A DNA stretch of 64,000 bases from an uncultured virus (IMG/VR IMGVR_UViG_3300028591_000172) (taxonomy: Duplodnaviria; Heunggongvirae; Uroviricota; Caudoviricetes), in the IMG/VR virus record IMGVR_UViG_3300028591_000172; one strand, given 5' to 3'. A program made the position numbers and the translations under genes. Of this stretch, positions 712 through 33,718 are shown piece after piece. Below the pieces are notes generated by a model. The model was not told where the DNA came from, made no database searches, and worked only from the letters and a program-made list of their open reading frames with translations. Positions within the stretch are counted from its first letter, which is position 1; the number at the start of each line of letters is the position of its first letter.

Positions 712-720
712 GAGAAAGTT

Positions 721-3294
721 ATGAACAAATTAAACAAATTAAGACAAGGACAAGAAATTGATTTAACATTCCTTAATCAATTTATTTCCACCGTAAACGA
801 AATCATTGATGAATTTGATTCAATAAAAAAAATCAACGCATCAAACGAACAAACATTAACTTCACTTGAAGAAACTCTTCATGATTTTAACGATAACTAT
901 TTAGAAAAAATAAATGCTGTTCCTAATTTAGTTGAAATACTTTCTCAATATATTGCTCTTTCAAACACTTTCACATTTGAAGATGACAAACTAGTTCAAG
1001 ATTCTCCTTTGCTTAAGCAAAAGAATCTTTCTTTTATTGTCACAGATAATATTGCTCCATATATAGCTGGAACGAAAAATGTTCAAGAAAAAACAATTAT
1101 CTTGGAGCTTAAAAATCAACAAGTTAATTATAGATATGAGCACACAGATATAGATAACGCTGAAGCTTTTGAAGAATTTGACGGAAATTTATATTATGCT
1201 GAAGATGGTTTATATGTTTTAGCAGATGAATTTGTAAGTGGCACAAGCTATTACAAAAAAGTAATTCCAGAATCTCAAGATACACCATTGACTGTTAAAG
1301 CAAACACATTATGGTTCTTCTACAATAGAGAATTTTATAACATGTCAACAGATAGTAACGGTCACACAATCATTCAAACAGTTCCTGTTATTTCTATTGA
1401 AGGCCCATTAGGACATGAAAAATGGGTTATCAACGGTGTAACAACAGAAGTTTACGCAAGAGGCCCACAAGGTGAAAAAGGCGAGACAGGTGCGACAGGT
1501 GCTACAGGTCCTAAAGGCGAAAGAGGATTCACTGGCGTTCAAGGTGCTACTGGTCCTAGAGGTAATCCTGGTAAGACACCAAAGATTTTAATTGCTTCTG
1601 CTGATAGTGATGATGGTGCTATTAATTTTACAGCTAATCAATTTGTTCCTGGCAGAAAATATATCGGATTAAAATTCGTTTATGAAGAAGATGATTCAGA
1701 TGTCATCGCAGCAACAAGATGGAACTGGATTAAAATAAAACAAGAAACATACTATCCACATGTTTCTGGTGACAAGCTTTATTTCTCTACAGAACCACCA
1801 AGTTCAAATGATCCAATTTACTCATCTGGTTATTCTATCAAAGGACCTAAAGGAGATACAGGTGCTACTGGTCCAGCTCCTACAATTAAATTTGTAGATT
1901 CTGAAGATCGAGTTGTAATAACTCCACAAGCAGTATCTGGAGACAATGGACAAATTCAATTGTTTAAATTGACAGACTTCAAAGGTCCTAAAGGTGACGA
2001 TGGAAAATCTGTTCAAATACAAGGAACAGCTGATGATATAGAAGATTTATTAACAAAATCAGCTTCAATTGGGGATGGATATATTGTCACAGAAATAGAA
2101 GAAGATGTTTCTGGATTAGAAGATCATGCTGGTGAACAAGGTGTTTTGTTTATTTACGCAAAAGAAAACAATCAAGGTCGTTGGATTTATGCTGGACAAA
2201 TTAAAGGTCCTAAAGGCGACGATGGTGAAAGAGGCCCGGCTGGAAGTATTGATTTAGTTACAGCAACAGCACATGAAGCATTATCCGTTGGCGTTACATT
2301 AACAGAAAGTGGAACCGCTTCTAATAAGAGTTTTGCTTTCGACTTTGCTATTCCTGCTGGTGCTGAAGGTGCTAGAGGTGCTGGTATTTATAGAGTTAGA
2401 CAAGCAACAAGTGTATTCAACAATCAAGAAATTTCTTCTAGTTATAAAGAAGGCGACATTATATTAACTGATGGCATGGATTTATTACGTGCCACATTAA
2501 ATGACCAAGATAATAAAATTTATTGGAGATCAGCCGGCAATATTAAAGGCGAAGCTGGTAATAAAATATTTATTTACACAGCATCTGAAGCTCCAACAAG
2601 TTATGTCTCTTCACCAAAAGAAGGTGACATAGCAATTTCAAATACATCGTTTGCTTTATATAAATATGTTTCTGGTGCTTGGCAACCATACGGAAGCTTT
2701 AAAGGAACTGCTGCCGGTTTTGGAACGCCAACTGTTACATCAACAAATATAGCTAATGTAGGCACACCAACTGTGACAGTTACAGCATCTGGTGATGATT
2801 CAGCTAAAATATTTAATTTTGACTTTGCCAACCTTAAAGGTGAAACCGGAGCTCAAGGTCCTAAAGGTGACACTGGCTCACAAGGTCCAAAAGGCGACAA
2901 AGGCGACAAAGGTGACAAAGGCGACACTGGAGCTGCTGGACATTATTACTTACACACATTAAATATTACAAATAAATATATTGTTGGAGCCGGTGGTCAA
3001 GGTCCTACATATGCAGAAAACAATTTTGTTTTCTCATTTATAAGCAGTCAATCTGCTAAATATGATGATGCAGGTATTAAACAAAACGCAGCTTATGTTT
3101 TAAAAAGAATTACTAACGCATATAAGACTGATGGTACACCAATAATAATAACGAATATAACTAGTTCAGGAATAACTGCTTTCGAAAAAAATAGCAGCGG
3201 AAATTTAGTTTCTTTAGTAGGAAAATCTACATGGTCAACAGATTATTACGTTACAGGATTGTGGGTTCATTCAGAAACAGTTGAAGAACTATAA
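721..3294 (+). CDS. Collagen-repeat tail fibre-like protein
   Basis: Several Gly-X-Y tracts (GPQGEKGETGATGATGPKGE, GPKGDKGDKGDKGDTG); N-terminal coiled coil; AGGAG RBS. Confidence 0.8.
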   Translation: MNKLNKLRQGQEIDLTFLNQFISTVNEIIDEFDSIKKINASNEQTLTSLEETLHDFNDNYLEKINAVPNLVEILSQYIALSNTFTFEDDKLVQDSPLLKQKNLSFIVTDNIAPYIAGTKNVQEKTIILELKNQQVNYRYEHTDIDNAEAFEEFDGNLYYAEDGLYVLADEFVSGTSYYKKVIPESQDTPLTVKANTLWFFYNREFYNMSTDSNGHTIIQTVPVISIEGPLGHEKWVINGVTTEVYARGPQGEKGETGATGATGPKGERGFTGVQGATGPRGNPGKTPKILIASADSDDGAINFTANQFVPGRKYIGLKFVYEEDDSDVIAATRWNWIKIKQETYYPHVSGDKLYFSTEPPSSNDPIYSSGYSIKGPKGDTGATGPAPTIKFVDSEDRVVITPQAVSGDNGQIQLFKLTDFKGPKGDDGKSVQIQGTADDIEDLLTKSASIGDGYIVTEIEEDVSGLEDHAGEQGVLFIYAKENNQGRWIYAGQIKGPKGDDGERGPAGSIDLVTATAHEALSVGVTLTESGTASNKSFAFDFAIPAGAEGARGAGIYRVRQATSVFNNQEISSSYKEGDIILTDGMDLLRATLNDQDNKIYWRSAGNIKGEAGNKIFIYTASEAPTSYVSSPKEGDIAISNTSFALYKYVSGAWQPYGSFKGTAAGFGTPTVTSTNIANVGTPTVTVTASGDDSAKIFNFDFANLKGETGAQGPKGDTGSQGPKGDKGDKGDKGDTGAAGHYYLHTLNITNKYIVGAGGQGPTYAENNFVFSFISSQSAKYDDAGIKQNAAYVLKRITNAYKTDGTPIIITNITSSGITAFEKNSSGNLVSLVGKSTWSTDYYVTGLWVHSETVEEL

Positions 3295-3306
3295 GGAGGA
3301 ATCATT

Positions 3307-4056
3307 ATGTTAATACTTAAATACGAAAACGAAACGTTATCATTCGTTGAAAACAATATTGATTCATCTGACTCAATCGTTAAATTATTAACTGATGTCG
3401 ATTGTAATATTTTCGGTATCATTACGTTATACAATGGTGCCAAAAGAATATTACAATTCATAAAATCTAATGACCATTATGAATCAAAATTTTCTATCGA
3501 TGAATCAACATTTAATAAATTAGGTAACTCATATATCCATATAGAATTATTCAATGGTGAGTTATCACAAAAATCAAATCAATTAAAGTTATCATTCGAT
3601 CTCGAAAAAATTAAGAATAGATTAGCTGCTCATTTATCTGATGAAGTATATGAACTAACTAAAAAAATTGCTAAGCTTGATGAAAAACTTAGTGCCGCAT
3701 TATCTTCTAGAATTCTAGAAAATATTAGAATAACTAATAAAGAATTAATTCAACCAGGAATGATTCCTGTTGCTATTAATGGAGATAGCTTTGTTGCTAT
3801 GTATCCATTTAACAACCACGTTGTTTCAGTCAATGGGCAGACTGCTGCCGATGGTGCTGTAATAATAGATTCATCTATGATAGAGTATAAAGAGGAAGGC
3901 AGAACTGTTGAACAAACATTCGAAGATCATACCTCTGCCATTACTGCTATTCACAATTTATTAAACGAGGTAATTGCTAATCAAAGACAGATTAGACAAA
4001 AACTTGATGAGTTAGAAATAAGACTAGACTCACATATCAACAATGGAATCGTATAG
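3307..4056 (+). CDS. Hypothetical structural protein with coiled coils
   Basis: 249 aa ORF, AAGGAGG RBS, VVSVNGQT fibre-type motif. Confidence 0.65.
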   Translation: MLILKYENETLSFVENNIDSSDSIVKLLTDVDCNIFGIITLYNGAKRILQFIKSNDHYESKFSIDESTFNKLGNSYIHIELFNGELSQKSNQLKLSFDLEKIKNRLAAHLSDEVYELTKKIAKLDEKLSAALSSRILENIRITNKELIQPGMIPVAINGDSFVAMYPFNNHVVSVNGQTAADGAVIIDSSMIEYKEEGRTVEQTFEDHTSAITAIHNLLNEVIANQRQIRQKLDELEIRLDSHINNGIV

Positions 4057-4068
4057 GAGGAATTCAAT

Positions 4069-4569
4069 ATGGCCAGTGTAGAAGAAATTATCAACTTTAT
4101 ATTCGGTGGACAAGTTGATGCGTCAAAGATAGTTACAATCTTAGTCGGTATCTACGCAGTAGTTAAATCAATTACTGAATGGATTGCTAAGAAAAAACTT
4201 ATCAAAACAGAAACCGGACAAACAAAACTCTTGGAAGAGTTAAAGAAAGAGCGTGAAGAAAATCAAGAACTCAAAAAAGCAATTGGTAAATTTGGTGATA
4301 TTATTATCACATCATATCTTTCAAGCAATACAATTCCTGTTGAAGTTAAACGTAGTATCAGCACGTTCGGTAGCGAACTTAACAAAATTGCTCAAGTTCC
4401 ACTTGCTGATACAACAACAAAACTAATTGATGTCGTTGCTAACATCGCTCCTGATTCTGATATTGTTCAACATAAAGAAGAATTAACAGAAGCAACTCAA
4501 GTCATCGAAGATGTTATCGATGAAGCAAATGATTTAGCTCAAGCAGCAATTGATAAAATTACAGTGTAG
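4069..4569 (+). CDS. Membrane-anchored coiled-coil protein (holin-like possible)
   Basis: One N-terminal hydrophobic helix followed by a coiled coil; AGGAGG RBS. Confidence 0.55.
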   Translation: MASVEEIINFIFGGQVDASKIVTILVGIYAVVKSITEWIAKKKLIKTETGQTKLLEELKKEREENQELKKAIGKFGDIIITSYLSSNTIPVEVKRSISTFGSELNKIAQVPLADTTTKLIDVVANIAPDSDIVQHKEELTEATQVIEDVIDEANDLAQAAIDKITV

Positions 4570-4577
4570 GTATAACA

Positions 4578-5099
4578 ATGTCTGATACAAAAGAAATTAC
4601 ATTAGAGAAAGCTACAACGTTGAGAATGATCGCTCGCGTGGCTTTCTTTTTAATTGCTTTCTTGGCTCCTACATTGATTATTGGAATTAAATTTCATTTG
4701 TTCACAGCCAGTACTGGAACAAAGTGGTCAATATTTGGAATCGCTTTGTTATTAATAGTTGGTTGGAGATTCAAAAAGAAATTGGTCGAATGGATTAATT
4801 CCTGGGAGAATAGCAACATACTTAAACACATACTTATAGGTATTGGTAGAGTATGGCCGTTCTTCTTAGTTGTCTCAATGATAGCTGTCATTCATTGGTC
4901 AGCACAAAAAATAATCGGTGATGCGTTATTCTGTTTAGAATGGACATGCGTATGCGAATTAGTAGCATACTTATTAATATATCCATATGAAATGAAAATG
5001 GATTATCTTGTTAAACGAATGATCCGTAAGAATGAGCGCAAAGAAGATTACAAAGAAGCAGTTAGAGAATTAAAAGAGGAAGAGGCTAACGGAGCATAA
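4578..5099 (+). CDS. Multi-pass membrane protein
   Basis: About 4 hydrophobic segments and a charged C-terminus. Confidence 0.7.
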   Translation: MSDTKEITLEKATTLRMIARVAFFLIAFLAPTLIIGIKFHLFTASTGTKWSIFGIALLLIVGWRFKKKLVEWINSWENSNILKHILIGIGRVWPFFLVVSMIAVIHWSAQKIIGDALFCLEWTCVCELVAYLLIYPYEMKMDYLVKRMIRKNERKEDYKEAVRELKEEEANGA

Positions 5100-6118
5100 T
5101 GGAAAACGAAACAAAAGATAGAGCTATTAAGAAGGGCTTAAAGGTAGCTGAGAAGTTACAATTCATAGCGTTAATCCTATTATCCCTTGTATTAATAACA
5201 GGCGTGGATTTAATTTCTGGTAACATTGGTTGGGAATCAATCAAAGATCCATACTTTTTTATCAGTAATACAATTACTGACATAGCATTACTATTAATTA
5301 CATTTGGCACAGTTTATCTAGTGCTCGATGTATTAAAAGAAAAAGATGCAACATATAAGTCTGCTAAAAAAGATGTTGATGAATTCGCAGTTAGCGGTAA
5401 AAATGTTCCATCAATCTTATCTAAATTCTTAGAGAAGATAAATAGACAAAGAAAGATTAACCAATATGAATACAATATCTTGGTTAAACTTTACAAACTT
5501 GAGAACCAAAAGAAATGGTATGCTTATCTTCCAATCATAGGATGGTTTATTAGAAATCCAAACTATTACACAGAGGAAGAAATGCACATCTGGAACTTCG
5601 GAACTGAAGAAGAAAAAAAGAAATCTAAATATTGCCGCAAGCGTAAGATGTATGAAGAACAACTGGACAAAGATTTAATCGAAAAGATTATCGATGTCAA
5701 GTATGTCAAATACGATAAGATTACATCAAACACATTGCTTAATGATTACTACAGTAAAGGTTCTGATATTCAAGTTAATGATTACATTACTAAAAATGAA
5801 TCTGGACAAATCGCTAGATTCAGAATCCCAACATTATTATTGTCATTCGGATTTACTTTTTTACTAACTAGCTTAGTAATGGATAGTATAAAATTAAACT
5901 GGATGGCATTGATTACAATTTCTGCGAAGTTATTATCTATCGTATGGAATGTTTTCACATCATATAGATATGCAAAGAAACACTTCAAAGGAATTACATT
6001 ACACGATATGTTATTCAGACGCTCAATCATCGTGGAGTATTATAAATGGTTAGTCCAAACAGCTAACGAAAAGCAACCTGAAACACAAGAAACACCTGTT
6101 CTAGTAGAACAACAATAG
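5099..6118 (+). CDS. Membrane protein (2+2 TM segments)
   Basis: Hydrophobic pairs near both ends; TAATG stop/start overlap. Confidence 0.7.
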   Translation: MENETKDRAIKKGLKVAEKLQFIALILLSLVLITGVDLISGNIGWESIKDPYFFISNTITDIALLLITFGTVYLVLDVLKEKDATYKSAKKDVDEFAVSGKNVPSILSKFLEKINRQRKINQYEYNILVKLYKLENQKKWYAYLPIIGWFIRNPNYYTEEEMHIWNFGTEEEKKKSKYCRKRKMYEEQLDKDLIEKIIDVKYVKYDKITSNTLLNDYYSKGSDIQVNDYITKNESGQIARFRIPTLLLSFGFTFLLTSLVMDSIKLNWMALITISAKLLSIVWNVFTSYRYAKKHFKGITLHDMLFRRSIIVEYYKWLVQTANEKQPETQETPVLVEQQ

Positions 6119-6129
6119 GAGGAAACATT

Positions 6130-6765
6130 ATGGATGAAACAAGATTGTTTAATTTATTAGAAAAGAGTTTACACTATACACCAATTGTTTATAAGCAAAC
6201 TCTTTATTCAACAAATCAAGCACAGTTTGACAATAAGTTTGTTTTAGAATTCAAACACACTGATTTGCCTGATGATTCTATTTTGTTCTTTGTTCCTTCT
6301 ATTAGTTCTAACGATAGTGCTGATTGTAAATTAATCGTAAGAATTCCATACGTTGAAGGAACTACTGGTAAATATAAATATTCAGATACTGAATACGATA
6401 TCGTTGTTGAAGAAAACGATTTAACAATGAGAAAAGCAAAGAAAGGTGACTTACTCGCTTTTAGAATGTGTATGTTCAGATTCCAAAAATCTTCAAAGAG
6501 AGCAATTCTTTGTAACTCACCTTTATATGACGATGCTATATTTAACACATTAAAAGTCACAGACTGTCAGTTCATCAATAGACCAACGTTTGTTGATCCA
6601 GGAACAGGAGTCACTTATACATTAGTCACAACAAAAGAATTTAATGAACTAATTGATAGAGTTGAAAAACTCGAAAGCAGAATTATATATGGAACAGAAG
6701 ATGCTGAAGAAGCATTAAAAGATAGACCATCTGGAACTATATATATTAAAGTTGAGGAAGATTAA
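6130..6765 (+). CDS. Hypothetical tail-region protein
   Basis: ORF with AGGAGG RBS; ends in PSGTIYIK-type motif. Confidence 0.65.
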   Translation: MDETRLFNLLEKSLHYTPIVYKQTLYSTNQAQFDNKFVLEFKHTDLPDDSILFFVPSISSNDSADCKLIVRIPYVEGTTGKYKYSDTEYDIVVEENDLTMRKAKKGDLLAFRMCMFRFQKSSKRAILCNSPLYDDAIFNTLKVTDCQFINRPTFVDPGTGVTYTLVTTKEFNELIDRVEKLESRIIYGTEDAEEALKDRPSGTIYIKVEED

Positions 6766-6768
6766 TAT

Positions 6769-7596
6769 ATGATTAAAGGAACAAATGCCGATTGTAAAGT
6801 TTTAAGCATAGATATAAATCAAACAGTTGCTACAGTTAAACTGCTTATTTTTGCTACACAATCGACAGTTCCTGCCAAATCATTTAGAATAGCCTTAAAA
6901 GATTTAGATAACGAAACCATCTATTACGTAGATAACAATACATACTGGATTGACTATATCAACGTATATAATAATGAGACTACAAATATAGATACAAAAA
7001 AATATAAAGAAATTTTATTTAATATCGACATAACAAATCAAAACAATGGTAAATTACAAGGCACAAGGTGGATAAGAAATTGTTACATTATGCTTTTAGA
7101 CCAATCAAAAATAAGTTCTGAACAATTGGCCTGGAGAAGTGAAGACATAAATTTAATATCTGATTCTTTCGTTGTTCCTGAAATTAAAAATTTCGTAGTC
7201 GATACTATGAAAACAAAGGAATTAAAAATTTCTTTTACTCTTAAATATGAATCTGAGAAAGATTTCGATTTAAACAACAAAAACCTAAGCGTTCAAATAA
7301 ATATTAGATCTATATCTTCTGATAAGATAATTGAATCGTTACAGATAGAAAATTATATTGCTAAAGAATATAATTATTTTATCACAAGAGATAGATACGA
7401 TGTCGGATTCCCTGTAGCTGTCCAGCTTTTAATAACAAATAAAATAGGTGAAGTTCTTTTAGAATATAGAAAAGCATATTGTCCTCTAGAAAAATATTCA
7501 AATGCTTTTGTTAAAACAGAAAAAGGTGTTAAAAGAGTTATAGCCTATTATGTTAACTTAGAAGCAGAAGGAGAACATGAAGGAGATTGGTTATGA
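6769..7596 (+). CDS. Hypothetical tail-region protein
   Basis: 275 aa beta-rich ORF in the operon. Confidence 0.65.
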   Translation: MIKGTNADCKVLSIDINQTVATVKLLIFATQSTVPAKSFRIALKDLDNETIYYVDNNTYWIDYINVYNNETTNIDTKKYKEILFNIDITNQNNGKLQGTRWIRNCYIMLLDQSKISSEQLAWRSEDINLISDSFVVPEIKNFVVDTMKTKELKISFTLKYESEKDFDLNNKNLSVQINIRSISSDKIIESLQIENYIAKEYNYFITRDRYDVGFPVAVQLLITNKIGEVLLEYRKAYCPLEKYSNAFVKTEKGVKRVIAYYVNLEAEGEHEGDWL

Positions 7597-8015
7597 ATAT
7601 TATTAAGATAAATTATAATAACGCTGCTATAAAACTCCCTACTAAAGTTTCTCCTACAGCTATTTCATATCACGGAGACGGTGGAATAATTGTCATCAGA
7701 ATAAATGATGGATTAAATTATGAAGGTTTTTATACTGATTATGTATTACACGTTTACGCAAATGAAAAATGGATTGGCGAATTACATAGAGAAAACGCTG
7801 AAATAATTGAAGGAAATGGAATCCATGAAATCGGACTAGAAGATATTGAAATATATTCTATGGAAACATTCCAAATAAAAATAGAAGGATATTACTATAA
7901 TACTGCTAATCAAAGACAAAACGTATCAGTAACATACACAATGCGAAACGCTTATAGGTGTAGTGAATCAACCATAACAAGTGAGTATATAAGATGTAAT
8001 GAAGCAGAAGATTAA
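7593..8015 (+). CDS. Hypothetical protein
   Basis: ATG 7593 after AAGGAG; ATGA overlap with the previous stop. Confidence 0.6.
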   Translation: MNIIKINYNNAAIKLPTKVSPTAISYHGDGGIIVIRINDGLNYEGFYTDYVLHVYANEKWIGELHRENAEIIEGNGIHEIGLEDIEIYSMETFQIKIEGYYYNTANQRQNVSVTYTMRNAYRCSESTITSEYIRCNEAED

Positions 8016-8073
8016 ATGTTGTGCTATGGTTGGCAACAAACTTATAATATAATTATAATAAGGAGACTCGGAT

Positions 8074-8709
8074 ATGTCGGATATAGAAGAACACAATCAA
8101 CATAAAATAGTTCCAACAGCTACGAGAGTTGAATATACTCCGACTCAATGGGTGAATGATGTTACTAAACTGAATGAATCCAATATGAATAATCTAGAGT
8201 CTGGAATAACGTTATCAAATAACTTGTCATTAGAAAACGCATCGTTCCTTGATGAGTTACAAACAGCTATTAACGAAAACACAAGCATATCGTTCAACAG
8301 TTCAACTAATCAATTAACGATAACTATCGGAAGAAAAGCTACAGAACAAAATCCAACACGATACTTTGTTCAAAGAGTAATAACAATAACACCTAATATG
8401 ACTGGCATATATGAAGGTGTCGCTGCTGCTGAAGCTAAACTTCAAGAAAGTAAAGAATATACAGATAACGCAGTAGCTAATGTAATGCGTATAAGTGGAA
8501 ACTTATCGCCAGAAGATTTCCCAGAAAATCCATCAATAGGTGATACTTACAACGATCCAGTATCAGGAAGTAACTTTACATGGAATGGAAATAACTGGGA
8601 CAAATTATCAGAAACAATTGGCACAGGAAGTGGATTATCCAAAAGTGGCAATACAATTAGTTCGCTAACGACAGCGACTGATGTAATCATAAATATCAAA
8701 GACGATTAG
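8074..8709 (+). CDS. Tail fibre-associated protein
   Basis: YTPTQWVND..LNESNMNNLESGI and NPSIGDTY..FTWNGNNWDKL fibre-type motifs. Confidence 0.65.
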   Translation: MSDIEEHNQHKIVPTATRVEYTPTQWVNDVTKLNESNMNNLESGITLSNNLSLENASFLDELQTAINENTSISFNSSTNQLTITIGRKATEQNPTRYFVQRVITITPNMTGIYEGVAAAEAKLQESKEYTDNAVANVMRISGNLSPEDFPENPSIGDTYNDPVSGSNFTWNGNNWDKLSETIGTGSGLSKSGNTISSLTTATDVIINIKDD

Positions 8710-8724
8710 GAAAGGAGAATATTT

Positions 8725-10119
8725 ATGTCACAAAGAACTCTAAAAAAACTTCAATACGATGGTAGTGATGTCGTAGTTGAAGTAGCAAATCGTGATGGCA
8801 ATGGTAATGTGATTACATCTACCTATGCCACAAAAAGCGAAGTAACCACTGGTTTGAGTGGAAAACAGCCAAATCTCACAGCAGGAACAGGCATTGATAT
8901 TACAAACAATGTTATTAGTGTTGTAAAAGCGACTGCCTCAATTTTAGGTGGTATGAAAATTGGCAACGGTTTAGAAGCCTCAGGAACTGATGGAACAGTT
9001 AAATTATCTACCGCTTCTGCTGAACAATTAGGCGGTGTCAAAATTGGTAGCGGCATTTCAATTAACAATGGAGTTATTTCTGTCACTTCACTAACTTGGG
9101 ATAACGTTTCAAGCAAGCCATTTAACACAGTTGACAGTGGTTCTGGAAAACACTTTACAATTACAAGCAATAAATTATATGTAAACACCGATGTTTTCCC
9201 AACAAAAACATTTGTTGGCGACAATTATGTTACTTTAACCGCATACAACACTTTGGTTAATACAACTTTACCAGCAACATATCAAGGAAAAAACAACACC
9301 TTGACATCACTCAGTGGTTTAGCAACAAACAAAACTGGTCTTATCAAATTAACAAATGGGACGGCTAGCATTGACACAAATACATATTTAACATCTCACC
9401 AATCTTTAGCAAATTATTACACAAAATCCGAGATTACAGGTTTGTTTAATGGTGTTAAACAATTCTCTTATGAAGTTGTTTCTTCATTGCCAACAGCAAG
9501 TGCTGATACAATGTATAAAATTTATTTTGTTCCTGCTAGCAATACAGCAACAAACAATGTTAAAAACGAATATATTACAATTCGCAGTGGGTCAGAAGGT
9601 TCATATACATATTCTTGGGAACAAATCGGTTCTACAGTAATGGATTTAAGCAGTTATTTAACAACTTCAACAGGCTTACGAATAGTTGAATACGCACACA
9701 CCGCAAAAATATCTGACGTTGTCAAATATCCTCATATCGCTAAGTTCGCTGGAACAAGTGGCTCACTAATTTATAGATATTATTTGGCTTCTTGTGCTGC
9801 CGCTGATAGTTCTAATTGCGATTTTGAATTCGAACAAATTGGTTTTTGGGGTAGCACTTATGGACACGATAATAACGATGGGGAACAAGACGCAAAAAGA
9901 AGATTTGTTGGTTATGAGGTAGCAAACAGCACATCATTATCCACTATTCTTGGCGACAATAGTTCGTATTTACAAGAATATGCGACGACAGCAGCGGTTG
10001 CGAATACATATCAAACTAAATTAACAAGTTCGAATGCGGGAACTGGCATTTCAATATCAAATCAAGTGATTTCTTGGGATAGCCCTTTCACAGTAACAGA
10101 TGTAACTTTAGATTATTAA
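8725..10119 (+). CDS. Tail fibre / receptor-binding protein
   Basis: Repeated LGGxKIGxG and AGTGIxIxN motifs; Ser/Thr-rich. Confidence 0.75.
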   Translation: MSQRTLKKLQYDGSDVVVEVANRDGNGNVITSTYATKSEVTTGLSGKQPNLTAGTGIDITNNVISVVKATASILGGMKIGNGLEASGTDGTVKLSTASAEQLGGVKIGSGISINNGVISVTSLTWDNVSSKPFNTVDSGSGKHFTITSNKLYVNTDVFPTKTFVGDNYVTLTAYNTLVNTTLPATYQGKNNTLTSLSGLATNKTGLIKLTNGTASIDTNTYLTSHQSLANYYTKSEITGLFNGVKQFSYEVVSSLPTASADTMYKIYFVPASNTATNNVKNEYITIRSGSEGSYTYSWEQIGSTVMDLSSYLTTSTGLRIVEYAHTAKISDVVKYPHIAKFAGTSGSLIYRYYLASCAAADSSNCDFEFEQIGFWGSTYGHDNNDGEQDAKRRFVGYEVANSTSLSTILGDNSSYLQEYATTAAVANTYQTKLTSSNAGTGISISNQVISWDSPFTVTDVTLDY

Positions 10120-10131
10120 GGAGTTTTTACA

Positions 10132-11022
10132 ATGGTGACAACTCTTAAAAAAATAAAATATAACAATAAAGACGTTCAGGTTGAAAGTGCTGTTCGTGAT
10201 GGTAATGGCAACATCATAACCAGCACCTACGTCACCTCCGTTAATAACGTTTCCCCTACAAACGGCAACGTAACTTTAACCATTCCGTCAGCCGTTACAG
10301 AAAGCACAGTCAGCGGCTGGGGTTTCACAAAAAATAGTGGAACCGTTGTCGGAAGCGGTTTAACTGCTAACTATTTCGTTGTAGGCAACGGAACAACAAA
10401 TGTGAAGATTTCTTCATTAAAGCCAACTACCTCTTCAACATCTTGGTCAACAACTTCAGATGTTAATGTGCCAACAATGAAAGCAATTTCTGCTTACGTT
10501 ACAGGATTAGGTTATACAAGTAACACTGGGACAATTACAAAAGTTCAATTAAATGGAGTTGATGTTGCTACTAGTGGAACAGCCAATATTACAGCACTAC
10601 CACTTTCAGGTGGAACAATGACTGGCGATATTAACTGGTCTAGTTCTGCGGCTTGGTTAAAACCTTATTTGCTTGCTTTTAAAAACGCAGACACTTCCTC
10701 TTCACCAACGCACCCTTATACTGGATTTTATCAATGGGGAACTCAGTGGCAAGTAAACGCAAGAGACGTAAATAACAATTGGTCTTATAATTTGCTAACA
10801 ATTGACCTAGAAACAAAGGTTGCTAATTTTGCCGCAAGACCTACAGTTGGCAGTGAAAGTTTAGCATATGCTAGCGATGTTCCTTCTTCAACAAAAGGAA
10901 TTACATATTTAACAACTGCTCCAACGGCAGCAAACACAGACGGTGGTTTAATTATTGTTGTTCTTTCTTCAGAACCAGCAACAAAATATTCAGGATATAT
11001 TTATCTAATCACGGAGGCTTAG
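10132..11022 (+). CDS. Tail fibre protein
   Basis: LPLSGGTMTGDI motif; N-terminus similar to the preceding gene. Confidence 0.75.
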   Translation: MVTTLKKIKYNNKDVQVESAVRDGNGNIITSTYVTSVNNVSPTNGNVTLTIPSAVTESTVSGWGFTKNSGTVVGSGLTANYFVVGNGTTNVKISSLKPTTSSTSWSTTSDVNVPTMKAISAYVTGLGYTSNTGTITKVQLNGVDVATSGTANITALPLSGGTMTGDINWSSSAAWLKPYLLAFKNADTSSSPTHPYTGFYQWGTQWQVNARDVNNNWSYNLLTIDLETKVANFAARPTVGSESLAYASDVPSSTKGITYLTTAPTAANTDGGLIIVVLSSEPATKYSGYIYLITEA

Positions 11023-11023
11023 T

Positions 11024-11632
11024 ATGGGGATTAAAATTGGAAACCTAAATCTAGGCTCCGCTTTTGTTGGTAATAAAGCCATACAAAAGATTTATATTGG
11101 CAATGATTTAAAATGGTCTGCTGAAGAAGATTTATTTGATTTATATTTAAGACACGAATTAGTTTCTGTTTCTGCCAAGCAATTAGGGAATATTACAAAA
11201 ATAGGAAGTGGTGCTTTCTATAATCAAACTACCCTAGTAGAAATTGAAATACCAAATACGGTTGTTTTGATAGACAAACACGCTTTTTATGGTTGTTCTT
11301 CCTTAACTTCGGTTACCATTCCTAATAATGTAACCTCAATTGGTGGCTATGCTTTCTCTAATTGTACATCTTTAATTTCAGTAACAATCCCTGATGGTAT
11401 CACTTCTATTGAAGAAAGTACTTTTGGTTGGTGTTCCTCACTCACATCTGTTGTCATACCCGCTAGTGTCACTTCAATTGGTCAACTTGCTTTTACATAT
11501 TGTACATCTCTCAACTCTATTACTTATAAATCAACAATGAATGACTGGAATAACATAACATTAGGAACTAACTGGCGGAGCAATTCTTCATTAACAACAG
11601 TCATTTGTACGGACGGAACGATTACTTTATAA
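11024..11632 (+). CDS. BspA-type leucine-rich repeat (LRR_5) protein
   Basis: Repeated IPxxVTSIGxxAFxxCxSLxSV units. Confidence 0.9.
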   Translation: MGIKIGNLNLGSAFVGNKAIQKIYIGNDLKWSAEEDLFDLYLRHELVSVSAKQLGNITKIGSGAFYNQTTLVEIEIPNTVVLIDKHAFYGCSSLTSVTIPNNVTSIGGYAFSNCTSLISVTIPDGITSIEESTFGWCSSLTSVVIPASVTSIGQLAFTYCTSLNSITYKSTMNDWNNITLGTNWRSNSSLTTVICTDGTITL

Positions 11633-11642
11633 GAGGTTCTTT

Positions 11643-12467
11643 ATGGCATTAAATCTATTTCAAAAATTAGTTCAAAAAAATCCAATAGACAGCGGGTGTA
11701 TAACATCTGACATTTTATCTTCTTTAGAAGTAATAGGTGACCATTGTTTTTATGTGCTTAGCGACGACTTTTTTCCAATAAAAGTATCTAACGTTGCTTT
11801 CAATAACAATTTAAGGGAATTAAAATACATCTCTGTATCTCCTGAATTCACACAATCAATAGTAATAGGTGAAAACGTTACAAAAATTGCGAATTTTACT
11901 ATGATGTTGTCAGGTTATGTTTCAGGAACAGATTACACCATAACGTTCAATTATTACGCAACGAACGCTGAAGATAATAACGTTGTAGGAGCAATTGCGG
12001 TACCTTGCTTTACAGGACAAAACAAAAGTAATAGCCAACAACAAGTAAATTTAACAGTTAACATAAACATAAAATCAACAGTGAGGACATTGCCAAACAA
12101 TGCGTTTTATTCACTTAACGGAGGCTCTATTTTTGTAACTTCAACGTGTAACATAAATATAGAAGAAGGATTGACAACATTAGGAGACAATGCTTTCCCT
12201 GTCACAGATTTAATTTTCCCTTCAACACTAATTACAATAAAAGGTGCGATAGATAGAGGAAACGTAAGTGGTCACACTTATACATTCAAAACACCTTCAG
12301 GAGTTGCGATGACACTTCCTACGGCTGGAAATGGCTCTGGAATGTTTTATAACAAAACAGCAAAAACAATGACCATTTATACTGATAATGAAACAATAAA
12401 AAATTATAACTGGTCAGCAGACAACGTAACACCAACGTTTTACCACTTAGATGGTACCGCTTGGTAA
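11643..12467 (+). CDS. Degenerate BspA-type LRR protein
   Basis: IGENVTKI, TVRTLPNNAF and EGLTTLGDNAF repeats. Confidence 0.65.
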   Translation: MALNLFQKLVQKNPIDSGCITSDILSSLEVIGDHCFYVLSDDFFPIKVSNVAFNNNLRELKYISVSPEFTQSIVIGENVTKIANFTMMLSGYVSGTDYTITFNYYATNAEDNNVVGAIAVPCFTGQNKSNSQQQVNLTVNINIKSTVRTLPNNAFYSLNGGSIFVTSTCNINIEEGLTTLGDNAFPVTDLIFPSTLITIKGAIDRGNVSGHTYTFKTPSGVAMTLPTAGNGSGMFYNKTAKTMTIYTDNETIKNYNWSADNVTPTFYHLDGTAW

Positions 12468-12477
12468 GGAGAACAAT

Positions 12478-13035
12478 ATGAATATTATTAAAGCAAACGA
12501 AAAAGAACTATACGAAGGTGTTACTCAAGCAATTTTAAGCCAAACAGATTACGCTATGTATTGCGTTTACGACAAACCATATGTAGTAACTGGTTGTGAA
12601 ATACCTCCGAACTACGAATATATAAAAGAACACAACATTGAAGTTCTTGATATTCCTACAATGGGAGGAACAATTGTTGTGGGAGAAGGAGATTTGGGTT
12701 TTGGTCTAACTTCTTCTGACATTAACAAAACTAATGGATTTCTCGAAAAAGCAAAAAACAATTTGCTCGCTTTAATTAAAAAGCACGGGTATGAAGCCAC
12801 AACAGACAACAATGACATATTAATTGACGGCTATAAAGTTGCTTCATATTGTTCAAAAAGATGTGGCAACGTTTATTTTGGAGTATTTCAAGTTTCAATG
12901 AACGTGGACTTAAATCTTATTAACAACATTTCAAATAAAGAGATGGTTAAAGTTCCAAAAAGTTTGTCTTCTTATGGACTTACTAGCCTAGAAATCGAAA
13001 AAGAGGTTGTTTTAAAAACAGCAGCGGAGTTCTAA
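12478..13035 (+). CDS. Lipoate-protein ligase/transferase family (BPL/LplA/LipB) catalytic domain
   Basis: GGTIVVGEGDL and NDILIDGYKVAS match the GGxVxHDxG and NDxxxxGxK motifs; ATG 12478 follows AAGGAG. Confidence 0.7.
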   Translation: MNIIKANEKELYEGVTQAILSQTDYAMYCVYDKPYVVTGCEIPPNYEYIKEHNIEVLDIPTMGGTIVVGEGDLGFGLTSSDINKTNGFLEKAKNNLLALIKKHGYEATTDNNDILIDGYKVASYCSKRCGNVYFGVFQVSMNVDLNLINNISNKEMVKVPKSLSSYGLTSLEIEKEVVLKTAAEF

Positions 13036-13036
13036 T

Positions 13037-14383
13037 ATGAAACTATTTAATTCAAAAGAAGACTCACTATATCTAACTAGAATGCAATGGACAAAAGTGT
13101 TCACTGCTTTTTCTATAATGATCATAGCTCTATACATAGTTGCTATGGTTGCTTCTTTGTTAGGCAGTAAATATTTCATATTGAATTACCAGAATTCACA
13201 AATGGATAGAATCCAAGAGTGGTTAGTTAACTATAATTTATATCCACTCGTTATGGATTTATTTATGACTCTAGAATTTACCATAGTTATTTCATTTGTT
13301 CTTAAAAAGATTCCTAAAATATGGTATGTTCTAGCGTTTTATACAATTCCAATGATTCTTTATTATATAATGCATTTAATCTTTGGAGAATTTCCTGATA
13401 TAATTAGAGCTACATATCCATTTTTATTTTATTTAATAATACCTATTATTCAACAATGTATAGATAATAGAAAAGATGTTTACCGTCCTAAATTTAGTTG
13501 GAAAAAATATGGATTCTGTATAGTTAGACTATTAATCGCTACAGCTATAACTTTTGTTTTACAAATAATGATTTATGTAATTAAAGATGGCACATTCACT
13601 TTAGAAAATAAAGTAATGAATTTATCAGCTCACTTTATTTACACATTAGAATATGACATTGCCCTATCAGTAATACTCTATACGATATTACTTTTATATA
13701 GGGAGAAAGGAGACAGCAAATTATGGGCGACTTCCCAGGATCATGGTGGATCTTCCCAAACATCGACGAAGCAATCGCAGAAATCGTTGCGGAAGAATCT
13801 GACGAAGACACAAAAGCGTAAGATTCGTCTACTCTACTTAAGAGTTTATCTTACACAAATATGTGCGTTCCTTCTTTTGATGGTCTTACCATTCTTGTTA
13901 GGTAAAGTATTAGAATTCCTTGTTATGTATCTAGCATTCGCTATTGCCAGATATTTATTAGGTTTTAAATACTCATTACATTACAAGAAAGAATCAATGT
14001 GCATTACTGTTGGTGTTATTGTCTTCGGTATCTTGTCACTTGCTGTCCCTTTCTTTTACGTCACATTAGTATTAGCTATAACATTAGGCGTATCGTTAGC
14101 AATTTTGTTACATCTATCTTACAAATACAAAGGAATGTTCTTATTTGCTCAGGTAGCAAAGCCGGATAAATTCGCACTTCTTTATACTTTCTTTGATGGT
14201 AACTTAGAATATAGACACGTAAAACAAATGTGTATCTATAAAGGACTTAATCAAGAAGAAACAAAATTGATATGCGAATATACTGAAGGAAATAAAATTT
14301 CTTATATTGCCTGGAAAAATAACTATTCAGTTAGAATGACAATATATAAACTAGATGAAGCAATAGCAAAGCTAACTAAATAG
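13037..14383 (+). CDS. Multi-pass membrane protein with AgrB-like region and C-terminal HTH
   Basis: About 6 N-terminal TM segments; ARYLLGFKYSLHYKKESMC resembles the AgrB R..G.H...C catalytic segment; GLNQEE...GNKISYIA...YSVR resembles a LuxR/sigma4 HTH. Confidence 0.65.
   Translation: MKLFNSKEDSLYLTRMQWTKVFTAFSIMIIALYIVAMVASLLGSKYFILNYQNSQMDRIQEWLVNYNLYPLVMDLFMTLEFTIVISFVLKKIPKIWYVLAFYTIPMILYYIMHLIFGEFPDIIRATYPFLFYLIIPIIQQCIDNRKDVYRPKFSWKKYGFCIVRLLIATAITFVLQIMIYVIKDGTFTLENKVMNLSAHFIYTLEYDIALSVILYTILLLYREKGDSKLWATSQDHGGSSQTSTKQSQKSLRKNLTKTQKRKIRLLYLRVYLTQICAFLLLMVLPFLLGKVLEFLVMYLAFAIARYLLGFKYSLHYKKESMCITVGVIVFGILSLAVPFFYVTLVLAITLGVSLAILLHLSYKYKGMFLFAQVAKPDKFALLYTFFDGNLEYRHVKQMCIYKGLNQEETKLICEYTEGNKISYIAWKNNYSVRMTIYKLDEAIAKLTK
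13723..13821 (+). CDS. Nested 32-aa peptide MGDFPGSWWIFPNIDEAIAEIVAEESDEDTKA (AgrD/AIP-like precursor)
   Basis: Own RBS (AAGGAG 13707-13712), ATG 13723, TAA 13819-13821, in a different frame from the surrounding gene; ATC/TTC/GAC/AAC codons. Confidence 0.65.
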   Translation: MGDFPGSWWIFPNIDEAIAEIVAEESDEDTKA

Positions 14384-14402
14384 CTAAACATTGCACATAT
14401 GC

Positions 14403-14430
14403 AACAGCTCGAAAGAGTTGTTTTTATTTT
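14403..14430 (+). terminator. Intrinsic terminator-like hairpin
   Basis: AACAGCTC-GAAA-GAGTTGTT followed by a T tract. Confidence 0.65.
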
Positions 14431-14488
14431 ATATTGTTCTTAGGACAGCAAGTGACACACCAACACATCACTTAAAGGAGAACATAAT

Positions 14489-14866
14489 ATGCCATACGAT
14501 CAATTCGGAAATTTTAATCCTTATAACTACGGTCAACCTAGGCAACAACAACCACAACAAAATGTTTATGCTTTTGTTAGTGGGCTAGAAGGTGCCAAGC
14601 AATATACAATACCAGCTAATCAATCTATTTTATTAATGGATAACGCGCAACCTGTGTGCTATTTAAAGCAAGCTAATGCGTTAGGCCAAACATCTCTTAA
14701 ATGTTTTAAATTAGTAGAAGTTAGCGAAGATAAACTTGTGACAAATGGCACACAAAATAGTGAAGTAACAATTTCGTTAGACAAAAACGAAGAGTTTGTC
14801 ACACTTAAAAACACAGTAAATAGCTTAATTAAACGCATAGAGAAACTTGAACCTAAAGGAGAGTAA
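14489..14866 (+). CDS. Cassette gene 1, Gln/Asn-rich hypothetical protein
   Basis: AAGGAG RBS; FVSGLEGAKQY..ILLMD motif. Confidence 0.8.
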   Translation: MPYDQFGNFNPYNYGQPRQQQPQQNVYAFVSGLEGAKQYTIPANQSILLMDNAQPVCYLKQANALGQTSLKCFKLVEVSEDKLVTNGTQNSEVTISLDKNEEFVTLKNTVNSLIKRIEKLEPKGE

Positions 14867-14871
14867 TTTAT

Positions 14872-15135
14872 ATGTCAAATCCTTTTAACACGCTTAATCC
14901 AGCCAATCCTTACAACGCTAATAACATGTCTGGATTCCGTAACGCATACCAAATGCTAACTAATTCAATGAATCCAATACAAACATTTATGCAAATGGCA
15001 CAGGGAAACCCTGCCTTACAACCAGCGATTCAAATGTTACAACAAGGCTACAATCCTCAACAAATATTCAACACTATGTGTCAACAACGTGGTATTAACC
15101 CGAATGAATTCTTAAAGAATATCACCGGGAGATAA
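14872..15135 (+). CDS. Cassette gene 2, NPQ/Met-rich small protein
   Basis: NPIQ/NPQQ repeats; MCQQRGIN. Confidence 0.8.
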   Translation: MSNPFNTLNPANPYNANNMSGFRNAYQMLTNSMNPIQTFMQMAQGNPALQPAIQMLQQGYNPQQIFNTMCQQRGINPNEFLKNITGR

Positions 15136-15155
15136 TATAGAAAGGAGAATTACCT

Positions 15156-15710
15156 ATGGAAGGAACAGGAATCGTCCCAACAATGGATATGAACCGTGGT
15201 GGTTACGGCTATGATGGTTTCGGTGCAGGTTCTGGCATTTGGTTATTCGCTATCCTCGCTTTAATGTGGGGTGGCAATGGCTTATTCGGTGGCAATGGCT
15301 TAGGTTATAGACCAGCCACAGCTGAAGATGTCAGTAATGGTTTCAACTTCTCTGAATTACAATCTGAGAACAGAGACATCCTTGCCTCTATCGAAAGAAA
15401 CAAAGCCGATATCGTTAGTGACATCCATGATGTTGCTATGGGTGTTGCTGATACCCGTGCTCATCAACAAGAATGTTGCTGCAATATCTTAAGAGCCATT
15501 GATGCAACTAACTACAACACCACTGCACAAGTTCAAAAAGTCTTAGATGCAATCTCTGCTAACAAGATCGAAGAACTCCAAGGCAAGGTCAATCAACTTG
15601 AATTAGCTCAAGCATTGAACGGCGTTGTCAGATATCCATCTGCATTCTCATACAATGCAGGCCCAAGCCCATTCTGCGCAGGCGGATGTGGCTGTAACGG
15701 AAACATTTAA
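15156..15710 (+). CDS. Cassette gene 3, Gly-rich TM and coiled-coil protein with CCC motif
   Basis: GGYGYDGFG, one TM segment, QQECCC, terminal CAGGCGC. Confidence 0.8.
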   Translation: MEGTGIVPTMDMNRGGYGYDGFGAGSGIWLFAILALMWGGNGLFGGNGLGYRPATAEDVSNGFNFSELQSENRDILASIERNKADIVSDIHDVAMGVADTRAHQQECCCNILRAIDATNYNTTAQVQKVLDAISANKIEELQGKVNQLELAQALNGVVRYPSAFSYNAGPSPFCAGGCGCNGNI

Positions 15711-15836
15711 TAGTCTATTAGACACGACATTTAGTCACCTAGCCCATAAAGCAATGTTTCATTAGACTATTTAGGTGCTTCCTAGATAGTCTTTTATTTA
15801 ATTCGTGAGAAAAAATCTCACAGAAAGGGAATTAAC

Positions 15837-16244
15837 ATGAATAACAGTTTAATTTATTTAACAACTCCATCTACTGCTACAGTTGCGGCTGATGGCGTAT
15901 TACCATTAACTACTATTGTTAGAAGACGCGGTCAATCTGTTCAACAATCTAATGATTCCGTAGTCTTAGGTGCTCCAGGTTATTATCACGTCTCAGTTAA
16001 TGCGACATTCACAGCTCCAGAAGCAGGCGATGTTACATTTGAACTTAGACAAGACAACCTTCCAGTCTCTGGTGGCACAGCATCTACCACAATCACTACA
16101 GCAACAACTGAAGTTAGAAGTCTTTCATTCGAATCTATCATCAGAGTTCCTTGCTGCGGTGCACCAGTCACATTATCAGTAGTTAACACTGGCATTGCAA
16201 TTACCACATCTAATATTTCCTTCGCAGTTGAATACCTCGGATAG
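15837..16244 (+). CDS. Cassette gene 4, BclA-C/C1q-like beta-sandwich protein
   Basis: APGYYHVSVNATF motif; all-beta pattern. Confidence 0.6.
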   Translation: MNNSLIYLTTPSTATVAADGVLPLTTIVRRRGQSVQQSNDSVVLGAPGYYHVSVNATFTAPEAGDVTFELRQDNLPVSGGTASTTITTATTEVRSLSFESIIRVPCCGAPVTLSVVNTGIAITTSNISFAVEYLG

Positions 16245-16255
16245 GAGGAATCAAT

Positions 16256-16693
16256 ATGCATAGAAAAATTTTAGAAGATGCAACGCTAGAACAAACAAAA
16301 GAATTCATTGATCGTTCATTACGCAAAGTTAAATTTGTTGATGAAGAAATGTATGAAGATTTAGAGCACGAACTTTATGTCGACGTCTATGGTTATCACT
16401 TCAATGCCTGGTTACTTAAGTGTGCGTTAGATAAGATGACTAATGAAGATGGCACTAAAGGTGGACACTGGACACTTGAAGAGACCAACTCAGTTGCTAG
16501 ACAACATGGTGTAGAATTTATACACTGCAACGAATACGACTGGAACTACGTCATGAATATGATGTATTCAGACTATTACGGCAGTGTGTCTAACGAAACA
16601 TCCACATACGTTAAGCTTGCTAAGAAATTCTTACAAGACAAAGACGCACCAGAAGGTAAAGCACTTAAGTATTATCTTGCGATGTGTGATTAA
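16256..16693 (+). CDS. Cassette gene 5, helical hypothetical protein
   Basis: HWTLEET..MNMMYSDY..FLQDKDA; AGGAGG RBS. Confidence 0.8.
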   Translation: MHRKILEDATLEQTKEFIDRSLRKVKFVDEEMYEDLEHELYVDVYGYHFNAWLLKCALDKMTNEDGTKGGHWTLEETNSVARQHGVEFIHCNEYDWNYVMNMMYSDYYGSVSNETSTYVKLAKKFLQDKDAPEGKALKYYLAMCD

Positions 16694-33667: not shown

Positions 33668-33718
33668 ATGGCATGTAAGAAAAAATCAAAAGGCAAAAAG
33701 CCAGGAAAGAAGTGCTAG
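33668..33718 (+). CDS. 16-aa Lys-rich peptide MACKKKSKGKKPGKKC
   Basis: AAAGGAG RBS; stop 3 nt before the groEL start. Confidence 0.55.
   Translation: MACKKKSKGKKPGKKC

Follow-up and report, generated by a model that had tools for sequence, protein, structure and literature searches.

The window analyzed here, a 64,000-nucleotide stretch of DNA from an uncultured Caudoviricetes virus (IMG/VR record IMGVR_UViG_3300028591_000172), carries on its plus strand a gene whose 448-residue product joins, in a single reading frame, a six-helix membrane domain, a linker, the core of an AgrB peptidase and a putative C-terminal helix-turn-helix (HTH) domain. Inside this gene, and in the +2 (= -1) frame relative to it, lies a second open reading frame (ORF) of 32 amino acids, MGDFPGSWWIFPNIDEAIAEIVAEESDEDTKA, which resembles the pheromone precursor AgrD without its leader (Table 1). 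A preliminary description of the DNA, made from its letters alone, had proposed both the order of the domains and the nested frame with a ribosome-binding site of its own; the domain order was borne out by an AlphaFold2 (AF2) model and by Pfam, and the nested frame was present in the ORF list, with a Shine-Dalgarno (SD) site, AAAGGAGA, ending 9 nt upstream of its ATG. We propose, at a probability of roughly 60%, that the locus is a compact, kinase-free agr-type module of a family of uncultured gut and rumen phages with an out-of-frame nested precursor; judged from the sequence, one mRNA would yield two products in two frames.

Table 1. Features of the AgrB-like gene and its surroundings (positions in the window; pLDDT, predicted local distance difference test)
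Feature	Position	Strand	Basis
Main ORF, 448 aa, single frame: six-helix transmembrane domain, linker, AgrB core, putative HTH	13037..14383	+	ORF list
Predicted six-helix membrane domain, residues 1-222, family-specific	13037..13702	+	Helices of the AF2 model
Predicted disordered cytoplasmic linker, residues 223-251	13703..13789	+	pLDDT <50
AgrB core, residues 247-358, PF04647 positions 5-110 of 185	13775..14110	+	Pfam match
Catalytic loop, His315 (13979-13981) to Cys322 (14000-14002), at the predicted cytoplasmic face of the membrane	13979..14002	+	H315 and C322 in 40/40 proteins
Putative C-terminal HTH domain, sigma-70 region 4 / LuxR (GerE) type, residues 375-448	14159..14380	+	Domain model
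SD site of the nested gene, GAAAGGAGA, main-frame (E)KGD	13705..13713	+	Conserved
Nested gene, 32 aa, AgrD-like without leader, MGDFPGSWWIFPNIDEAIAEIVAEESDEDTKA	13723..13821	+	Conserved ORF
SWWIF codons, proposed five-residue ring Ser7-Phe11, then Pro12	13741..13755	+	Alignment
Terminator-like hairpin with T run, just 3' of the gene (weak)	14403..14432	+	1 site in 12300-14700 vs 0.9 expected in shuffles

DNA was fetched for 17 related loci beside the window, of which L001 and L002 came from viral contigs, L003 from a metagenome-assembled genome, L004-L014 from metagenomes, and L015-L017, a divergent subfamily, again from viral contigs. Three loci were left out of the counts, namely L006 (same contig as L003), L007 (near-identical to L002) and L014, leaving a counting set of 15 distinct DNA sequences, the window included. 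L014, a 1.6-kb contig at a coverage of 1.46, was dropped as probably chimeric; over positions 1-1616 it reads from an Hfq-like frame through a prolyl-tRNA-synthetase-like frame into the last two thirds of a nested ORF, and on into the AgrB-HTH part. At the protein level, a search with the 448-residue query returned 152 homologs at E ≤ 0.001, most of them 430-470 aa long, and the non-self matches among the 120 listed were 50-68% identical to it; conservation of residues was counted in 40 aligned homologous proteins. The proteins of L015-L017 that host the nested ORF are 27-33% identical to the window protein, and their genes have a G+C (GC) content of 45-52%.

The main frame was open in all 15 DNA sequences, and the nested ORF was likewise intact in all of them, in the same frame and at the same place, including the three from the divergent subfamily. 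The nested peptides of the main group are MGDFPGSWWIFPNIDEAIAEIVAEESDEDTKA, MDDGHGSWFIFPNIEEELAEIFDEDESNEDSKK, MDDLPTSWWIFPNIDDAVAEIEFGEETDEDAKE, MGDVPQSWWIFPNIEEAIADIEFSEESNENTNK, MGDVPSSWWFFPNIEDELADIFGSEEESDKDTKK, MDGYPQSWWFFPNIEDAIAEIVAEESDEDTKE, MDDLPQSWWFFPNVESAIAEIEYEESDENSKE, MGDIPFSFFFFPNFEDKLAKIVVEEPIEETEE (found twice, on different DNA), MDDFPQSWWFFPNIEDSIAAIVAEETNEDTEE, MYEQYRLDPPQSWWIFPDFDEAIAEIESEESVEESED and MGDGSYSWWFFPNIEDELAKVFNEEQPVENTKE, and those of the divergent subfamily are MGDAPGCWWVFPDFEEMVAEELADEE, MDLPPCWWVFPDVDEMFAEVLAEEE and MPDNPYCLWFFPDYDELVAEELSNEDEDE. Conservation of the nested ribosome-binding site and ATG among homologs, which the preliminary description had named as a check, held throughout: the element GAAAGGAG[AG], followed by 9 nt and ATG, was invariant in 15/15 sequences, main-frame synonymous sites included. 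In the main frame, K224 and G225 were retained in 40/40 proteins although they fall in a linker predicted to be disordered, and this invariance is explained by the overlap of the nested SD site with their codons. The pattern GAAAGGAGR-N8-10-ATG occurs 4 times in the window, compared with 0.09 expected, and one of the other three GAAAGGAGR sites precedes the start of a 215-aa gene at 44026 (minus strand). Two strongly basic ORFs, at 33668-33718 (plus strand, 16 aa) and 46071-45949 (minus strand, 40 aa), also stand behind GAAAGGAGR, 8-10 nt and an ATG, and may be further unannotated small genes.

Composition and substitution patterns both change within the overlap. GC was 0.50 in the nested ORF against 0.30 in the whole gene, and GC at main-frame third codon positions was 0.56 in the overlap against 0.24 elsewhere, in agreement with the earlier remark that the codons there are unlike those of the flanks; the nested gene largely determines the main-frame linker sequence. 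Among +2-frame stretches with no stop in any of the 15 genes, the longest, at 33 alignment columns, coincides with the nested ORF (main codons 228-253), and the next spans 23 columns, while the longest in the +1 frame was 16. Codon-position divergence, computed from 13 sequences, was greatest at main-frame position 3 almost everywhere (~0.5), and at codons 223-251 it was greatest at main-frame position 2, which is position 3 of the nested frame. At codons 235-245 the divergence at the three positions was [0.156, 0.396, 0.174], compared with about [0.3-0.4, 0.1-0.27, 0.5] elsewhere, which is a normal coding pattern when read in the nested frame, and codons with higher divergence at position 2 than at position 3 numbered 15/32 in the overlap vs 51/405 elsewhere (Fisher P = 7.9e-6). 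From pairwise single-site differences we then took the ratio of changes synonymous only in the main frame to those synonymous only in the +2 frame. This ratio was 2.64 in the N-terminal domain, 6.20 in the AgrB core and 2.33 in the HTH domain, and within the nested peptide it was 1.01 for residues 1-6, 0.59 for residues 7-20 (SWWIFPNIDEAIAE) and 1.98 for residues 21-32; nested-frame synonymous changes thus exceeded main-frame ones in residues 7-20. In a resampling that fixed each main-frame protein and drew new synonymous codons according to the usage of its gene, the geometric-mean probability of an open nested frame was 0.09 per sequence, and the motif [SC]xxxFP arose at 0.005 (range 0 to 0.07), compared with 15/15 observed in both cases. 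These sequence comparisons make it very likely that the nested ORF is a real gene, selected in its own frame.

The second membrane region of the main product matched the AgrB family PF04647 with 32.5 bits (gathering cut-off 23, E 6.7e-8), as did 38/40 homologs at E ≤ 0.01 and all three members of the divergent subfamily (L015, 31.8 bits; L016, 25.7 bits; L017, 32.6 bits), which substantiates the AgrB-likeness first suggested by its motif. R305, G309, S313, H315 and C322 were kept in 40/40 proteins, and H315 and C322 also in 14/14 of another alignment. The motif had been written R..G....H......C; its four residues are indeed present, but the spacing is R305-x3-G309-x5-H315-x6-C322, in which H-x6-C is canonical and R-x3-G-x5-H differs from the R-x4-G-x-H of Staphylococcus aureus, whose AgrB requires R70, G75, H77 and C84 for activity according to passages of PMC10196373. 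When the family profile was aligned by hhalign to the protein annotated as AgrB in phage phiCDHM1, R305, H315 and C322 fell on its R...H-x6-C, with a 3-residue insertion between R and H, at a weak score. After the linker, the AgrB part comprises four helices, and then the HTH domain begins. On this sequence evidence, the second membrane region is a genuine AgrB core.

The AF2 model of the whole protein (mean pLDDT 73.4) contained six long helices (residues 15-221), then a disordered segment (223-251), a group of four helices (257-363) and, last, a helical domain (378-447). Lysines and arginines in the loops numbered 42 on the predicted inside and 5 on the predicted outside, and this positive-inside count places both termini, the linker, the His/Cys loop and the C-terminal domain in the cytoplasm, so the main-frame product is predicted to be a 10-helix membrane protein with both ends cytoplasmic. 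The predicted outward loops 45-68 and 183-196 of the six-helix domain are conserved and are candidate binding-site regions. Run against 1.84 billion representative proteins, a profile of the domain gave 48 matches, all of the same family; the complete proteins among them were ~400-456 aa long, which is the fused length, and the remainder were fragment-like. Residues 1-222 gave no lead in the ESM Atlas (best score 0.80, TM-score ≤ 0.39), and whole-model searches with Foldseek and VIA gave no informative match for the six-helix domain or the AgrB core, the hits being designed helical bundles and transporters at Z ≤ 7.1, a comparison by which these parts were barely tested. Passages of PMC10196373 describe the AgrB family as lacking structural data, and the empty structure-library searches for the AgrB part fit that account. 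By sequence, the whole-protein profile had no match in the PDB at E ≤ 10, the C-terminal profile had only weak PDB matches to archaeal-virus proteins, which are probably chance, PHROGs held no family for the 448-aa protein, and GenBank phages gave no match by blastn of positions 12000-16000 or by tblastn of the protein.

An HTH at the C-terminus, of the LuxR or sigma region 4 kind, had also been predicted beforehand, and lists of that fold type were what both structure searches returned. Folded alone, the domain reached a pLDDT of 94.7. Foldseek matched it to LuxR/GerE-type domains (RcsB, DosR, VraR, EsrB) and to sigma-70 region 4 with probabilities of 0.97-1.00 at E values no better than 0.15-1.5, RcsB and DosR standing at 0.99-1.00 with a root-mean-square deviation (rmsd) of 0.8-1.4 Å over 44-48 residues. 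VIA-align gave Z scores of 7.8 (1xsv), 7.5 (SigR region 4, rmsd 1.8 Å over 57 residues) and 7.2 (DosR, rmsd 1.5 Å over 51 residues); overall Z ranged from 7.8 to 6.0, a middling level given that it stays below 8, and sigma region 4 or LuxR HTH domains made up most of the top 50 rows. The weight for this fold assignment lies in the consistency of the match list and in no single score. An HTH Pfam model (HTH_36, best E 0.0021) was matched by 2/40 members. The model thus points to a C-terminus with a sigma region 4/LuxR-type HTH fold, a putative DNA-binding domain. Pfam scans for HATPase, HisKA and LytTR domains found none in 66 window ORFs (the scan stopping short of the giant ORF at 50448-63998 and of ~14 kb of the 78,398-nt source contig beyond the window), and none of the histidine-kinase or LytTR families appeared in 55 neighboring ORFs of 8 related loci. 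With neither AgrC nor AgrA found in the window, the module appears, by sequence, to be kinase-free.

The nested peptides share the pattern M-x4-5-[S/C]-[WFL]-[WF]-[IVF]-F-P-[N/D] followed by an acidic tail. Position 7, the sole conserved nucleophile in the 15 sequences, is Ser in 12 and Cys in 3 (L015-L017), and in the alignment of the Ser-type peptides S7, F11 and P12 are invariant. Four hydrophobic residues follow the Ser or Cys and close with the invariant Phe, from which the ring size is deduced, and the ring variants are SWWIF, SWFIF, SWWFF, SFFFF, CWWVF and CLWFF. The tail of 14-21 residues is strongly acidic, giving the whole peptide a net charge of -8; it opens with P-[N/D], and acidic residues begin at +3 or +4. 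The expectation of [C/S]xxxx was upheld (15/15, with alternating Ser and Cys), while for the acidic tail the outcome is mixed, as the tail is acidic but P-[N/D] directly follows the ring. The Ser/Cys alternation, of which the preliminary description was unaware, fits an AgrD-like peptide well, as agr systems are described in parts of PMC3673130 as having both Ser lactone and Cys thiolactone pheromones; the likeness does not extend to a match with any AgrD model. Taken together, the alternation, the four hydrophobic residues, the acidic tail and the inseparable linkage to an AgrB core, set against the missing model match and leader, suggest a peptide that acts in an AgrD-like manner without being filed in the AgrD family, and by analogy we regard it as likely that the peptide is the substrate of the AgrB core.

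Comparison of the sequences indicates that the peptide is translated from a strong SD site and ATG of its own. By analogy with AgrB and AgrD, Cys322, helped by His315, would attack the bond after Phe11 or Pro12 to form an acyl-enzyme and free the acidic tail (PNIDEAIAEIVAEESDEDTKA, calculated mass 2258.04 Da). Ser7 (Cys7 in the divergent subfamily) would in turn take over the acyl group from the enzyme and close a lactone or thiolactone ring that keeps a short exocyclic N-terminus, for example (M)GDFPG-cyclo(SWWIF), a product lighter by 18 Da than its linear form, with a calculated [M+H]+ of 1193.54 without Met and 1324.58 with Met. The missing leader might be offset by synthesis on an mRNA tethered to the membrane while the six-helix domain is being inserted, and leaderless export could proceed through phage lysis or through the six-helix domain. 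The membrane-tethered HTH would allow a direct transcriptional output, our leading guess being that it and the six-helix domain couple peptide binding to phage transcription. Cyclization, secretion, sensing and DNA binding are all inferred in this scheme. Its furthest extension, which we consider unlikely, would be a phage-to-phage (or phage-to-host) circuit within one gene, in which the peptide is made late, freed at lysis and, in subsequent infections, bound by the outer loops of the six-helix domain to switch the HTH and alter phage transcription, with neither kinase nor response regulator; in that case the ring variants would act as pherotypes and separate phage lineages.

A number of observations weigh against this interpretation. 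None of 11 peptides tested matched a Pfam or NCBIfam model at E ≤ 10, although models are weak at such length. Only 5-11 residues precede the Ser or Cys, and an amphipathic leader of the AgrD type, which is N-terminal and 24-25 aa long in passages of PMC10196373, is absent, as the preliminary description had already noticed. The invariant Pro directly after the proposed ring is an unusual scissile position, and it implies either cleavage of the F|P bond or a six-residue ring cut after Pro. The amphipathicity of the tail was not significant (hydrophobic moment 0.32 vs 0.23 ± 0.11 when shuffled, with 21% of shuffles reaching the value). On the enzyme side, the hhalign comparison with the phiCDHM1 protein scored weakly (probability 0.7%, E 0.081), R and H stand 3 residues further apart than in the canonical motif, the Pfam match ends at position 110 of 185 (spanning 3-118 in L003), and the full six-helix AgrB body is absent. 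For the coding signal, the two frames were about equally constrained over the whole overlap, with a mean pairwise identity of 0.52 for the nested frame and 0.57 for the main frame and with 444 main-only vs 414 nested-only synonymous changes. Over nested residues 21-32 the main frame dominates, at the overlap with the basic start of the AgrB core, KNLTKTQKxKIR; the last third of the nested peptide would need only to keep its acidity. DNA was available for 15 sequences as against >150 protein homologs, and these 15 are kin by descent, so the P-values and other figures given above are not probabilities from independent samples. A sensor role of the six-helix domain is a guess, as the profile, ESM Atlas and fold searches detected no relative of it outside the family. 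A complex prediction of the whole protein with the peptide scored 0.00 in two runs, which speaks neither for nor against binding.

Three other explanations have to be set beside the proposed enzyme-precursor pair. The peptide might be real and yet not a substrate of AgrB, serving instead as a small acidic cytoplasmic partner (an anti-HTH or anti-sigma-like inhibitor, or a factor that helps assemble the membrane protein), while the AgrB core cuts something else, such as its own tether to free the HTH in the manner of regulated proteolysis. Such a role would account for the absent AgrD match and leader and for the Pro after the proposed ring, and it would suit a C-terminal domain resembling sigma region 4, the solved examples among the structure matches being often bound by small anti-sigma partners. 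It leaves unexplained why a single invariant nucleophile site should alternate between Ser and Cys, and the [WFL][WF][IVF]F stretch, typical of autoinducing-peptide rings, is hard to explain in a soluble acidic inhibitor; the constant physical linkage to an intact His/Cys AgrB core also suggests an enzyme and its substrate. We rate this explanation as improbable.

The remaining two concern how, or whether, the peptide is made. Intragenic SD-like sequences can be ribosome pause sites, and the nested ORF might be untranslated and conserved as a by-product, either because the main-frame linker is constrained or because the region holds an RNA element, for instance a pause site of this kind. The linker is indeed fairly conserved in the main frame, which moreover prevails over the last third of the overlap; since the model shows the linker as disordered, strong constraint at the protein level is not expected there. 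The resampling probabilities for the frame and the motif against their presence in every sequence, and the switch of both periodicity and synonymous-change ratios to the nested frame, run counter to this explanation, as does the ATG, which is kept even in L017, where the main-frame W becomes C (W or C in 40/40 proteins); we consider the untranslated alternative very unlikely. A programmed -1 frameshift, through which the peptide would form a C-terminal extension of the six-helix domain with that domain acting as leader, would have the right frame, as the nested frame is the -1 frame, and would explain why no leader is seen; an internal SD-like site can stimulate frameshifting. Against it, a nested-frame stop lies ≤8 codons upstream of the ATG in 14/15 sequences (the exception, L012, shows none over the stretch read), L001, L002/L007, L004 and L011 have an additional stop 2-4 codons ahead of the ATG, and no conserved slippery heptamer is visible in the alignment. 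The invariant ATG and its 9-nt spacing from the SD site argue for initiation rather than frameshifting, and the latter appears extremely unlikely.

The proposed module of AgrB core and nested precursor shares with the staphylococcal and clostridial AgrB/AgrD pairs a membrane Cys/His peptidase with R and H-x6-C at the cytoplasmic face, a small precursor in which a Ser or Cys precedes four hydrophobic residues and an acidic tail, and the encoding of the two together. It differs in that the phage core corresponds to the N-terminal ~110/185 profile positions and is fused to an unrelated six-helix domain and an HTH, and in that the precursor has no leader, carries Pro after the ring, matches no AgrD model and is encoded within the enzyme gene in another frame, 5' of the AgrB core; the AgrC kinase and the LytTR regulator AgrA of agr systems were not found in the phage window. 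The fsrB/fsrD pair of Enterococcus faecalis is similar in that an ORF first annotated as the processing enzyme holds a separate start from which FsrD, the Ser-lactone pheromone precursor, is translated. Passages of PMC7028047 locate fsrD at the 3' end of fsrB without a change of frame, in disagreement with part of the review PMC3673130, which has it in 'a different frame'. The phage precursor sits in a different frame in the middle of an ORF whose main frame runs through, and Enterococcus has FsrC and FsrA in addition. A phage-borne agr-type system is known from the Clostridioides difficile phage phiCDHM1, whose agr3 locus of agrD, agrB and agrC is, according to Hargreaves 2014, a probable recent acquisition from the host. 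Its record (HG531805) contains a full-length AgrB of 197 aa, an AgrD with a hydrophobic leader and a histidine kinase, which are three ordinary separate genes with neither an HTH fusion nor overlapping frames. Arbitrium (AimP/AimR) is comparable in pairing a short phage peptide with a phage HTH protein in the absence of a kinase. Arbitrium peptides are linear, Sec-secreted, processed outside the cell and sensed by a cytoplasmic tetratricopeptide-repeat receptor, whereas the gut phage module would use AgrB-type chemistry and a membrane-tethered HTH.

Full-text searches, taken at the level of result listings and abstracts, found no description of an AgrB-HTH fusion, a leaderless AgrD or an out-of-frame nested agrD, which suggests that agr-type signaling without a kinase and with a precursor nested out of frame is new. 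The locus is annotated only as 'AgrB family protein', and for that reason the peptide has been missed by gene callers and protein databases. If the proposed reading is correct, the module would rank as the most compact of known agr-type systems, its precursor, maturase and output domain fitting into ~1.35 kb, and it would offer a clear example of a conserved overlapping gene, out of frame, that supplies the substrate for the protein encoded around it. It would also imply that AgrB chemistry can dispense with both the AgrD leader and the C-terminal half of AgrB, which bears on substrate recognition and export by AgrB, an open question, and phage-encoded communication in gut and rumen viromes would gain cyclic (thio)lactones as a new chemical class.

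The window is phage DNA of 34% GC that encodes tail-fiber proteins, helicases, a primase, a single-stranded DNA-binding protein, an Erf-type annealing protein, an exonuclease and a GroEL-like chaperonin. The AgrB-like gene is the last in a tightly packed plus-strand run of tail-fiber-type genes extending from 91 to 14383, and it starts 1 nt past the stop of the upstream gene. Promoter-like sites numbered 10 against 12.9 expected and gave no support for an internal promoter. In related loci the upstream tail-fiber genes vary, while the five downstream genes have the same sizes (~125, 87, 184, 135 and 145 aa; L001, L002, L009, L010 and window positions 15837-16693, plus strand); the downstream 135-aa protein is BclA_C-like and the 145-aa protein belongs to DUF7841, and the same families recur in related loci. 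The labels of sequencing runs bearing the sequence read sheep or goat gut metagenome. In three metatranscriptome runs, contigs span positions 12900-13029 and 13654-14048, some without mismatch, which is compatible with transcription but no proof of it, and the uncovered parts mean nothing.

Searches for split or standalone forms of the protein found only contig-end fragments of close relatives (21 and 11 proteins), and a scan of IMG/VR with the AgrB-HTH alignment returned five loci, all already known. In the phylum of G001, the genome that holds L003, 399 scored genomes gave 3 matches, namely G001 itself and two weak ones (E 7e-5 and 5e-4), and 40 relatives of G001 (small genomes of 0.7-2.4 Mb) had no AgrB over the cut-off apart from G001's own phage-type copy. 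If relatives of G001 are hosts, the phage peptide would have no host agr signal to mimic, but the host link comes from binning only and is too weak to use.

Several neighboring genes are of separate interest. Just upstream of the AgrB-like gene, 12451-13035 (plus strand) encodes a 194-aa protein with a lipoyl-protein-ligase A/B catalytic domain (PF21948, E 2.1e-11), which is unexpected at the end of a tail-fiber module and is not conserved there in related loci. At 11024-12467 (plus strand), BspA-type leucine-rich repeats (PF13306, E 9e-37 and 1.5e-5) occur in two neighboring products, which are probably receptor-binding or tail-tip proteins. The GroEL-like chaperonin is encoded at 33722-35245 (plus strand; phrog_5725, E 3e-71), and a single ORF of at least 4517 aa at 50448-63998 (plus strand), which runs past the window end, fills a seemingly gene-poor region.

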